A stretch of 64,000 bases of DNA, from IMG/VR virus record IMGVR_UViG_3300029798_000001, one strand, 5' to 3'. Positions 17,119 through 56,644 of the stretch are shown one piece after another. A model generated the notes under the pieces. That model was given only the letters and a program-made list of their open reading frames with translations. It ran no database searches and was not told the DNA's origin. A program made the translations under genes and the position numbers. This stretch comes from a virus. Taxonomy: Duplodnaviria; Caudoviricetes. The first letter of the stretch is position 1. Each line of letters starts with the position of its first letter.

Positions 17119-17804
17119 AAGTTTTAATAAATACTTTTATGGGAAGAACTAAAGGTAGTTTAAGTAAAATACCAAAAATACAATATCCACGCAAATGCGA
17201 TCACTGCGATTATGTTTCAAATAATCCGCAGATGTATTCCTATCATAAACAAACTCACCAATCCATTCCTTACGGAACATTGTGTAATCAAGGATGCGGA
17301 CAACTGGCAAAATACACTAATACCAAAGGTAATCATACCTGTGAAAAAATAGCTCAGCATTGTCCTCAATACGTTAAAGAACACTCAGCAAGAGTAGAAT
17401 CACAGTGGAAAAATGATGATGCCCGTAAAGAAAAAACTAAAGAATTGTTTATAAAACATTGCAATACTCTGGCAGTTAGAAAACGACACAAAGAAATATG
17501 GCAAGAAAAATCTCAAATATACACTCCTGAACAGGCAAAGGAATATAGACATTATGCCCGTAGAATTAGACAAAAGGCACAAAAATGGGCCCGCGAGCAG
17601 GGTTATATATTAGGTCAGCAAACCTATCATGTAGATCATAAGTTTAGTATTATAGATGCATGGAATGCTGGGCTCAGTATTGAGATTGTAAATCATCCTG
17701 CTAACCTACAGATATTAGAAGCTAAGAAGAATAGTAGTAAAGGCCCTAACAGTAGTATCACGTTAACAGAATTAATGGAGGTTGTAAATAATGGCAATAC
17801 CTAA
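17115..17804 (+). mobile_element. Free-standing HNH-type homing endonuclease-like gene
   Basis: C-terminal YHVDHKFS...NHPANLQIL...NSSKG; N-terminal Cys/His clusters and basic helical repeats. Confidence 0.7.
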
Positions 17805-25257: not shown

Positions 25258-25265
25258 TATAAATA
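25258..25265 (+). promoter_or_regulatory. Late promoter TATAAATA
   Basis: Exact consensus upstream of 25306. Confidence 0.75.
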
Positions 25266-25305
25266 AAAGCAGGACCTCTGTGTCCATATATTAAGGAGAT
25301 TTAAA

Positions 25306-53917: not shown

Positions 53918-53985
53918 TATAAATATATTATGTAGATGCCCAATTAGGGTCTACTTTATTACTTGCTTATTTTTAAGGAGAATTT
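53918..53985 (+). promoter_or_regulatory. Late promoter + hairpin + ROSE-like RBS hairpin with no following start codon (orphan leader)
   Basis: TATAAATA(53918-25); GTAGATGCC/GGGTCTAC; CTTGCTT(53962-68)...AAGGAG(53975-80); no ATG/GTG/TTG at SD distance. Confidence 0.65.
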
Positions 53986-54056
53986 ATATATCAACGCAAC
54001 CCTTTCTGGCCCAGTGTCAACCCCTTACAATTTAAACATTTAACTATCAATAGTTA

Positions 54057-54085
54057 TTGACACTTATTCCTATTTGTGTTATAAT
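54057..54085 (+). promoter_or_regulatory. Consensus sigma70 promoter for groES-groEL
   Basis: TTGACA-17-TATAAT with TG extension. Confidence 0.85.
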
Positions 54086-54127: not shown

Positions 54128-54415
54128 ATGAATTTAAAACCTATTCACGATCGTATTGTTATTCGATTAGTAGAAGCGGAAACTCAAACTAAATCTGGAA
54201 TCTTTATTCCAGATGCCGCAGTAGAAAAACCTAGCCAAGGTGACGTTGTTGCCGCAGGCCCTGGTCGCACTACAGAAGATGGACAACTAGTTCCAAACGC
54301 AGTAAACATAGGCGACCGTGTGTTGTTTGGCAAGCATGCCGCAACACCAATTAAAGTTGACGGCGAAGAACTTCACATCCTCCGTGAGGACGATGTAATG
54401 GCAATTGTAGAATAA
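54128..54415 (+). CDS. groS: Co-chaperonin GroES
   Basis: LKPIHDRIV, TKSGIFIP, GDRVLFGK, ILREDD. Confidence 0.95.
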   Translation: MNLKPIHDRIVIRLVEAETQTKSGIFIPDAAVEKPSQGDVVAAGPGRTTEDGQLVPNAVNIGDRVLFGKHAATPIKVDGEELHILREDDVMAIVE

Positions 54416-56044
<1,629 letters not shown>

Positions 56045-56063
56045 TTTGACAGATTTAATCTGT

Positions 56064-56140
56064 TATAAATAGTACTGTGGATGCCGATGGTCGGGTCCAC
56101 AGTATTATGTCACTTGCTTATTTAAAAGGAGAAAACAATG
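56064..56140 (+). promoter_or_regulatory. hsp20 leader: late promoter, 5' hairpin and ROSE-like RNA thermometer
   Basis: TATAAATA(56064-71); long stem 56071-56106; CTTGCTT(56113-19) pairs with AAGGAG(56126-31) leaving a bulged G. Confidence 0.7.
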
Positions 56141-56584
56141 ACAAGACTCACAACTCTGGACCTCAGTCCATTCTATCGTAATTCAATTGGTATCGATCAT
56201 TTATTTGATCGTATGATTCATCAAATTGATACCGCGGCCGCATCAACAACTAACTATCCACCTTACAACATTGTAAAAACTGGCGAAAACACCTACGAAA
56301 TTCAAGTAGCTGTTGCTGGCTTCACTCAGGGCGAAGTTACAGTTAATGTTAATGAAGGCCAATTAATCATCACTGGCGAAAAAGGTGATACCGATCTACC
56401 CGAAGGACATGTATATGAGCACCAAGGAATTAGTTCCCGTCGTTTTATACGCACATTTACTTTAGCTGATTATGTTGAAGTAGTTACTGCTACTAGTCAA
56501 GATGGTATTCTTACTGTTAGTTTAGAGCGGCAGATTCCTGACGCGATGAAGCCAAAGACCGTTGCTATTACCTACAAAAAATAG
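56138..56584 (+). CDS. hsp20: Small heat-shock protein (IbpA/Hsp20 family)
   Basis: SIGIDHLF, NYPPYNI, AVAGF, HQGISSRRF.RTFTL, DGILTV. Confidence 0.93.
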   Translation: MTRLTTLDLSPFYRNSIGIDHLFDRMIHQIDTAAASTTNYPPYNIVKTGENTYEIQVAVAGFTQGEVTVNVNEGQLIITGEKGDTDLPEGHVYEHQGISSRRFIRTFTLADYVEVVTATSQDGILTVSLERQIPDAMKPKTVAITYKK

Positions 56585-56593
56585 TACAATAGT

Positions 56594-56626
56594 GTAAATA
56601 CAGTGGAGGGCATATTGCTCTCCACT
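56594..56626 (+). promoter_or_regulatory. Late-type GTAAATA followed by a 10-bp leader hairpin upstream of clpS
   Basis: AGTGGAGGGC-ATATT-GCTCTCCACT (56602-56626). Confidence 0.55.
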
Positions 56627-56644
56627 ATAACAAAGGATCATATA

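Follow-up and report, generated by a model that had tools for sequence, protein, structure and literature searches.

We propose that the leader of a phage hsp20 gene, at about positions 56077-56137 of the 64,000-nucleotide stretch of viral DNA analyzed here (the window), is a ROSE-type translational control element of two hairpins, which is transcribed from a NATAAATA late-type promoter and opens with warming. We give this reading a probability of roughly 0.6. In the proposed mechanism, transcription would proceed from the late-type promoter box at 56064-56071, and a stable hairpin I would set the fold and probably protect the 5' end. A weak hairpin II would pair an anti-Shine-Dalgarno (anti-SD) sequence, CUUGCUU with G56116 bulged, to the Shine-Dalgarno (SD) element AAGGAG, and a lower stem, UGUCA/UGACA, would hold the AUG. 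Because hairpin II would hold both the SD and the start codon, ribosome loading is proposed to be throttled while the hairpin is closed and to increase when warming opens it. We observe the sequence, its capacity to pair, the ROSE_3 match at the level of homology, the conservation and covariation among phages, and the position of the promoter motif at gene starts; we infer where transcription begins, that it is late and, most of all, that the leader responds to temperature. What appears to be new here is a ROSE-type leader on phage hsp20, with a lower stem predicted to mask the AUG, which is also found on dnaK and groES.

The hsp20 leader and its likeness to ROSE_3

The window is found in freshwater and lake metagenomes, has a G+C content of 39%, and carries nearly all of its genes on the + strand. 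Strong PHROG matches to ribonucleotide reductase, a DnaB-like helicase, and a ligase indicate phage-like DNA, while matches to tail and virion structural families are weak. The genes around the leader are clpX, a bS21 gene, a gene of no named family, groES, groEL, hsp20, and clpS. The hsp20 gene (56138-56584, + strand) encodes an IbpA-like small heat-shock protein (sHSP) of 148 amino acids (Pfam HSP20, E 1e-16; PHROG 432, E 1e-37). Upstream of it, groES (54128-54415) and groEL (54425-56044), also on the + strand, lie between two copies of the leader, and no terminator-like site was found between groEL and the hsp20 leader. Searching with the hsp20 protein led to relatives among which are G001, a 317-kb contig, and G002, a complete 344-kb contig that has terminal repeats. 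The relatives carry T4-like capsid, sheath, and portal genes; in G002, homologues of T4 gp23, gp18, and gp20 were searched for specifically and found. A preliminary description, made from the window's letters, had called the gene phage-borne, and the PHROG matches in the window, together with the T4-like genes and late sigma factor of the relatives, bear this out.

The leader (+ strand throughout) folds into two hairpins. Hairpin I (56074-56103) consists of 9 bp, a bulged G56083, 4 bp, and a UGG loop, in total 13 bp with a predicted energy of -17.9 kcal/mol (RNAfold), and covaries in relatives. The preliminary description had placed a stem of 11 bp here; the stem is present, and its length is instead 9 + 4 pairs around the bulged G. 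In hairpin II, the anti-SD CUUGCUU (56113-56119), which contains the ROSE motif UUGCU, lies opposite the SD AAGGAG (56126-56131) across a loop of 6 nt, and the hsp20 ATG follows at 56138-56140. The pairs are C113-G131, U114-A130, U115-G129, C117-G128, U118-A127, and U119-A126 (last three digits of each position), with G56116 unpaired here and in the Rfam alignment. This pairing and its bulge had been described beforehand, with coordinates that are all exact. The fold of the whole leader was equaled by none of 200 shuffled sequences; the energy of the SD hairpin was indistinguishable from shuffles (z = -0.5).

Below the SD stem, UGUCA (56108-56112) pairs with UGACA (56139-56143) in the standard fold, which keeps the AUG over 90% paired at temperatures up to 37°C, so that the start codon would be masked as well. 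In 27 distinct leaders with GUCA ... AUGAC, we compared the base before GUCA with the wobble position of codon 2 (Thr, ACN) and found U:A in 13, A:U in eight, G:C in one, and no pair in five. In marine leaders whose coding sequence starts AUGGU, CAUAG/CUAUG replaces GUCA/UGAC. On this model, the AUG is sequestered in hairpin II along with the SD, as it is in classical ROSE elements.

At gathering thresholds, no ROSE family of Rfam matched the window. In a 3.2-kb search, both copies of the leader matched ROSE_3 (RF02523) along its full length (all 69 model positions). Their scores, 35.2 and 35.5 bits (E about 8e-5), lie below the gathering cut-off of 43 bits; five relatives scored 28.6-35.8 bits. 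The arms of hairpin I, GGAUGCCGA..GUCGGGUCC, are nearly identical to the ROSE_3 consensus, as is seen in GGAUGCCGAUGGUCGGGUCC compared with the consensus gGAUGCCGAAgUCGGGUCc, bulged G included, and hairpin II fits the ACUyGCU ... AGGAG scheme of the ROSE_3 alignment. Neither RF00435, RF01832, nor any other ROSE family matched at E up to 10 in the same 3.2-kb search. Two bacterial sHSP relatives (L092 and L093) carry RF00435 above its threshold, which indicates that the ROSE search works.

Measured against the definition of ROSE elements, the leader stands directly upstream of an sHSP gene (start at 56138), places UUGCU (56114-56118) opposite AAGGAG, leaves G56116 bulged opposite the SD, and has the two-hairpin architecture of ROSE_3 with its conserved hairpin I; its score falls short of the family's cut-off. 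Because the alignment agrees in detail in both hairpins, we consider that the phage leader probably functions like ROSE_3 and is probably derived from it, though it lies below the family threshold. That the element stands beyond chance is confirmed, at the level of sequence, by the full-length ROSE_3 matches and by the presence of the motif in all 45 distinct viral hsp20 leaders described below.

Conservation in phages and predicted response to temperature

The leader is conserved across viral hsp20 genes. Retrieval by the hsp20 protein gave 69 IMG/VR loci (93-37% protein identity) with 45 distinct upstream sequences, and all 45 share one order: box, hairpin I, linker, C/UUUGCUU, a loop of 3-6 nt, AAGGAG, spacer, and ATG. 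The bulged G is present in all relatives, though moved by one base in CUUCGUUU variants, and a small group with CUUCGUUUA..UAAAGGAG keeps the bulge one base along. A covariance model (R1), built from 12 close relatives with a hand-written structure, found the two-hairpin leader before nearly every viral hsp20 examined. When 56 leaders were aligned to R1, 95.8% of the pair cells held standard pairs, compared with 85% in shuffles and 39-55% with slid partners.

The two hairpins are supported in different ways. In three sets of 56, 84, and 96 distinct relatives, 11, 12, and 11 of the 12 hairpin I pairs showed covariation. The SD stem was 98.8-100% paired in these same sets with no double change, and in the 56 leaders (98.8% paired) its changes were one-sided and pair-preserving only (three U-G to C-G and four C-G to U-G). 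We attribute the lack of covariation in the SD stem to the fixed sequence of the SD, so that its support comes from conservation of an untranslated anti-SD, not from compensatory change.

A second set, which was not used to build R1, came from scanning IMG/VR with the pattern CTTGCTTA-gap-AAGGAGA-gap-ATGAC, of which hairpin I is not a part. The scan gave at least 120 contigs, at least 116 of which have an sHSP directly downstream (20-70% identical to that of the window); three of the four others end at the locus edge. Of the first 100 loci, 87 matched R1 at E ≤0.01, with covariation at all 12 hairpin I pairs. We note that these alignments were fitted to R1, which leans the counts toward the model; the slid-partner controls and the effect's magnitude lead us to consider the conclusion for hairpin I safe. 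Covariance searches upstream of phage hsp20 and against the Rfam ROSE models, suggested as a check in the preliminary description, thus gave a leader model that recurs and a ROSE_3 match that is full-length but sub-threshold. The ROSE-like design put forward there holds, given the U(U/C)GCU anti-SD, the bulged G, the stable 5' hairpin, the ROSE_3 match, and the conservation in phages.

Hairpin I also contains an invariant internal motif (a U.G pair, the bulged G, and CC/GG). That this motif is invariant beyond the needs of stability, and that one module stands on four unrelated genes, would favor a role for hairpin I or II as an operator for an RNA-binding protein of the phage or host, such as a repressor or a GGAG endoribonuclease, or as the target of a small RNA, with the ROSE likeness secondary. 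We consider this very unlikely, as the hairpin I motif is also present in the bacterial ROSE_3 consensus, an element type that is active in vitro with no added factors (PMC3669281), and the analysis identified no candidate binding protein.

We also searched for a bacterial source of the leader. R1 had no match in ten bacterial sHSP relatives (≤46% identity) and only two spurious matches in 151 genomes of one bacterial class, and ROSE_3 had none in three of those 151 genomes. A bacterial source was therefore not found among these relatives and genomes.

Folding predictions were made for both the stems and the whole leaders. For the canonical SD stem, the predicted energy was -1.5 kcal/mol at 20°C, weakening to about 0 at 30°C; with the lower stem added, it was -4.3 at 20°C and weakened to about 0 near 40°C. 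Hairpin II of the ROSE_3 consensus was predicted at -7.6 at 20°C. In partition functions of 46 leaders from 10 to 45°C, SD and AUG pairing changed little, with mean SD pairing going from 0.56 to 0.50. For the window leader, nearest-neighbor parameters gave an SD that was only about 50% paired and almost temperature-independent between 10 and 45°C. The register predicted there is a shifted one (UUG/CAA, UU/AA, UUU/GAG) that needs an AAAACAA spacer, which is absent in more distant relatives, whereas the canonical ROSE register is possible in all. Thermodynamics was dropped as proof, since the SD hairpin equaled shuffles and showed little temperature dependence.

Lake water is rarely at 30-42°C, the range where bacterial ROSE elements open, which counts against the sensor reading, and the weaker stem of the phage leader would suit a host living at 4-25°C. 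ROSE sensing is underlain by non-canonical pairs, which nearest-neighbor parameters omit (PMC4166951), and for this reason we read the folding energies as uninformative about function. A temperature response of the leader is, in our view, plausible. The preliminary description had proposed chaperone production only in the warm, which may hold; nearest-neighbor folding predicts a marginal SD stem that changes little with temperature.

The nearly flat prediction for SD and AUG pairing from 10 to 45°C, together with the lake-water habitat, favors an alternative in which the leader is no sensor. It would then be a fixed translational throttle and mRNA stabilizer, with hairpin I protecting the 5' end and hairpin II setting the level of hsp20, dnaK, and groES. 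Another late-type leader of the window, at 25259, where box, hairpin, and SD are present and the anti-SD is absent, points the same way; its layout suggests that 5' hairpins may be general in the mRNAs of this phage. A simple throttle, however, could do without the precise ROSE motif and its bulged G. All viral hsp20 leaders examined nevertheless have this motif, as do those of dnaK and groES, and the bulge persists even where the register has shifted. In Pseudomonas, the hairpin is locked once that G is removed, and translation is locked in the off state when single bases of the anti-SD arm are deleted (P. aeruginosa, ΔG39 or ΔA35; P. putida, ΔG39 with U38C; PMC3669281). The non-canonical pairs of ROSE elements also lie outside the nearest-neighbor parameters. 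We regard a fixed throttle as unlikely and favor a ROSE-type element that opens with warming.

The promoter of the leader

The box at 56064-56071 (+ strand), TATAAATA, is an exact T4 late consensus and falls within the looser NATAAATA pattern, which is the late promoter of the T4-like cyanophage S-PM2 (PMC2984593). With the TG that precedes it, the box also reads as an extended -10 element, TGTTATAAA. The exact word TATAAATA was rejected as an enriched late motif on counts (eight in the window, with about ten expected; 14 in G002, compared with 19 of the reversed word), and the signal was taken to be the looser ATAAATA, judged by position. In G002, ATAAATA occurs 39 times forward and seven times in reverse. 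Excluding the three leader sites, 35 forward sites were examined, and 34 of these stand directly before genes, with no open frame running through them; the genes that follow include some with N-termini like those of tail sheath, tail tube, and fibre proteins. NATAAATA is absent at the major capsid gene of G002, which speaks against a purely late reading.

A gp55-like match is present in both G001 and G002, which are relatives and not the window's own genome. The G002 copy (L072, 317 amino acids) matches the PHROG profile phrog_12791, 'sigma factor for late transcription', at E 7e-72; a direct query with T4 gp55 reached only E 1e-7, and confirmation came from the profile. This homologue (L072:979-1932) is longer than T4 gp55 (317 versus 185 amino acids), and the match spans only its C-terminal two thirds. 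With T4-type late promoters (TATAAATA in T4; NATAAATA in S-PM2, PMC2984593), the phage box shares the motif, the place immediately upstream of genes, and a gp55-like sigma factor in the lineage. It differs in that the motif overlaps a sigma-70-like promoter in relatives, and its use by a late sigma factor is putative here: the motif is present in the window, and the gp55-like sigma factor and motif-bearing tail genes are in the relatives G001 and G002, not in the window's genome.

About a dozen of the G002 sites have an ATG only 4-8 nt past the box and no SD, and the same pattern is seen in the window. The NATAAATA boxes of this kind are at 17127, 18667, and 49553 in the window and at L338, L346-L348, L353, L355, L356, L359, L360, and L363-L365 in G002. 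This spacing suggests that a class of late mRNAs in this phage lineage is leaderless. Taken from the box-to-ATG distances of these SD-less genes in G002 and the window, the NATAAATA pattern would fit a start about 6 nt downstream, and the predicted transcription start of the hsp20 leader is the sixth base after the box, G56077, the first base of the conserved hairpin I core. Hairpin I stems often reach to 0-1 nt from the box, beyond what a start 6 nt downstream would include, which also speaks against a purely late reading.

Two further sites in the window resemble the hsp20 leader in layout. At 25259-25305, a short hairpin (GGAC..GUCC), AAGGAG, and a 139-amino-acid gene of no known family come after a TATAAATA box, with no anti-SD motif; this layout is repeated in G002 (L350). 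At 56594-56644, GTAAATA is followed by a hairpin, AGTGGAG..CTCCACT (56602-56626), AAAGGA, and the start of clpS, with no ROSE motif and no T-run after the stem.

The box could also belong to a host sigma-70 promoter with the extended -10 TGTTATAAA, or to a dual early-plus-late promoter, in which case hsp20 would not be strictly late. In many relatives (L001, L002, L003, L008, L018-L025), exactly 17 nt separate TTGACA from the TATAAA downstream, in marine relatives the promoter reads TTGACT-17-TATAAT and ATAAATA is missing, and other sigma-70-like promoters of the window share the tgtTATAAT context. Against this, a usable -35 element is lost at both leaders of the window. At the hsp20 leader (copy 2), TTGACA (56046-56051, + strand) lies 12 nt from TATAAA, and comparison with the 17 nt of relatives points to a 5-nt deletion in the window; at the other leader (copy 1), there is no -35 element. 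The first base of the box varies (C/A/G-ATAAATA) and ATAAATA is fixed, with NATAAATA in 106 of the 120 dnaK leaders listed (out of at least 120), which suggests a late promoter rather than a -10 hexamer. ATAAATA also marks tail gene starts in G002. We find a sigma-70 or dual promoter possible but rather doubtful.

On balance, we think the late-type box is probably in use, with sigma-70 possibly acting alongside it in relatives. The late promoter of the preliminary description is upheld to the extent that NATAAATA marks gene starts, including those of tail genes, in a relative with a gp55-like sigma factor; it is qualified by the second reading of the box as an extended -10. No elements like CTTGAAA or CCCCATNT, as in the sigma-32 promoter of the bacterial ibpA regulon, were found upstream in the window or in the leaders of relatives.

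Other genes served by the leader and comparison with known systems

The duplicate of the leader in the window is an orphan. Copy 1 (53918-53990, + strand) has its box at 53918-53925, hairpin I at 53932-53954, CUUGCUU at 53962-53968, and AAGGAG at 53975-53980, and its stem differs from that of copy 2 by a compensatory A-U to G-C change. Where relatives have ATG, copy 1 has ATA (53988-53990), and no ATG, GTG, or TTG lies behind its SD, so it is not an active thermometer in the window genome. The preliminary description had cited this duplicate as support for selection on the structure; the duplicate is real and carries a compensatory change, but it is an orphan without a start codon. Its value is rather in showing the leader as a module that other phages put on dnaK and groES, and in this way it appears to reveal a wider phage chaperone regulon.

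R1 also detected this upstream copy in many relatives, at the corresponding position about 2.15 kb before the hsp20 leader. Eight relatives have the orphan leader followed by an 8-codon open reading frame, MSK[HQ]x[YF][LV]T and stop (L001:838-864 and the same place in L003, L006, L008, L009, L010, L015, and L016), then an inverted repeat, a perfect sigma-70 promoter, and groES. The corresponding site in the window (53988-54040) has ATG changed to ATA and the TAG stop to CAG; L004 has a mutated SD. The orphan leader of the window is followed by the groES-groEL sigma-70 promoter (54057-54085, + strand), a consensus TTGACA-17-TATAAT with TG. The inverted repeat TAACTA-tcaa-TAGTTA (54041-54056) abuts its -35 element and may be an operator or an RNA hairpin; relatives hold AACAAC-ata-GTTGTT at the same place, so the arms covary.

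In other phages, the leader precedes complete chaperone genes. It stands before a full dnaK (Pfam HSP70, E 1e-254) in L022 (987-1049) and L043 (914-975), and directly before groES, with no separate sigma-70 promoter, in L058 (953-1010), where the order is groES-groEL-leader-hsp20. We scanned IMG/VR for the leader followed by ATGAGYAAR and obtained at least 120 contigs, at least 114 of which have DnaK downstream of the leader (loci L219-L335). R1 matched in 88 of 100 dnaK loci, and 30 of the 100 had two leaders about 2 kb apart, in the order leader-dnaK-leader-hsp20. A third copy, with CUCGCUU ... AAGGAG or UAGGAG, is present in G001 (196508; L078:1501-1563) and G002 (204151; L079:1501-1562). 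It precedes a protein of 80-82 amino acids, for which we found only a weak, below-cut-off match to Phasin_2 in the G001 copy (E 0.004).

In the likely history, a groESL cassette bringing its own promoter took the place of dnaK, and the leader was left behind. Copy 1 itself was considered as a dnaK relic, since the MSK start of the short frame resembles that of phage DnaK; alignments to phage dnaK 5' ends were non-significant (p 0.04-0.87), and this remains a guess. Copy 1 of the window probably survives as an upstream late-type promoter for groESL.

Together, these arrangements allow a broader and more tentative reading, to which we give slightly less than even odds: T4-related phages of lakes and oceans would carry their own RNA-thermometer heat-shock regulon, in which a portable late-promoter, ROSE-type leader gates hsp20, dnaK, groES, and a small protein, and the virus itself reads temperature and matches chaperone to assembly. 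If so, ROSE elements would for the first time be documented beyond cellular genomes and on non-sHSP genes. The ROSE-type device of bacteria is here encoded by viruses; strong selection maintains it in hundreds of phage contigs, where it has also been taken up on dnaK and groES. If the leader senses temperature, abundant aquatic phages would tune chaperone output to water temperature without a host factor, which bears on infection yield under warming. Such leaders would also be a source of naturally cold-tuned thermometers, with SD stems weaker than those of Pseudomonas. Searches of full texts gave no description of ROSE elements in phages, and a 2024 review only speculates on viral RNAs that behave like thermometers (PMC10884466).

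Among known systems, the phage leader is compared first with the Pseudomonas ibpA ROSE element (RF02523; Krajewski, Nagel, Narberhaus 2013, PMC3669281), one of the short two-hairpin ROSE-like elements with a U(U/C)GCU motif in which melting of hairpin II controls ibpA translation. There, hairpin II opens between 25 and 42°C while hairpin I stays closed (PMC3669281). Both are 5' untranslated regions of IbpA-type sHSP genes with two hairpins, a stable hairpin I of near-identical sequence with a bulged G, and U(U/C)GCU base-paired to the SD around a bulged G. The phage leader differs in being phage-encoded, in having a NATAAATA box instead of a sigma-32 promoter, and in its SD stem, which has two G-C pairs rather than four and lacks flanking G-C clamps. 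The AUG is unpaired in Pseudomonas (PMC3669281), whereas in the phage an extra lower stem is predicted to mask it, and the phage leader is also found on dnaK, groES, and a small gene of no known function.

The classical rhizobial ROSE (RF00435) and the enterobacterial ibpA ROSE_2 (RF01832) likewise share an anti-SD motif with a bulged G, control of an sHSP, and a last hairpin that masks the SD and sometimes the AUG, but have three or four hairpins in 70-120 nt. Among phages, the alternative structures of lambda cIII and the fourU thermometer of blyA in prophage SPbeta (PMC10586365) are likewise phage-borne mRNA structures, and they tune translation by temperature. Their folds and motifs are unrelated to those of the hsp20 leader, and each is found in a single phage and serves no chaperone gene, whereas the leader described here recurs across many phages on hsp20, dnaK, and groES.
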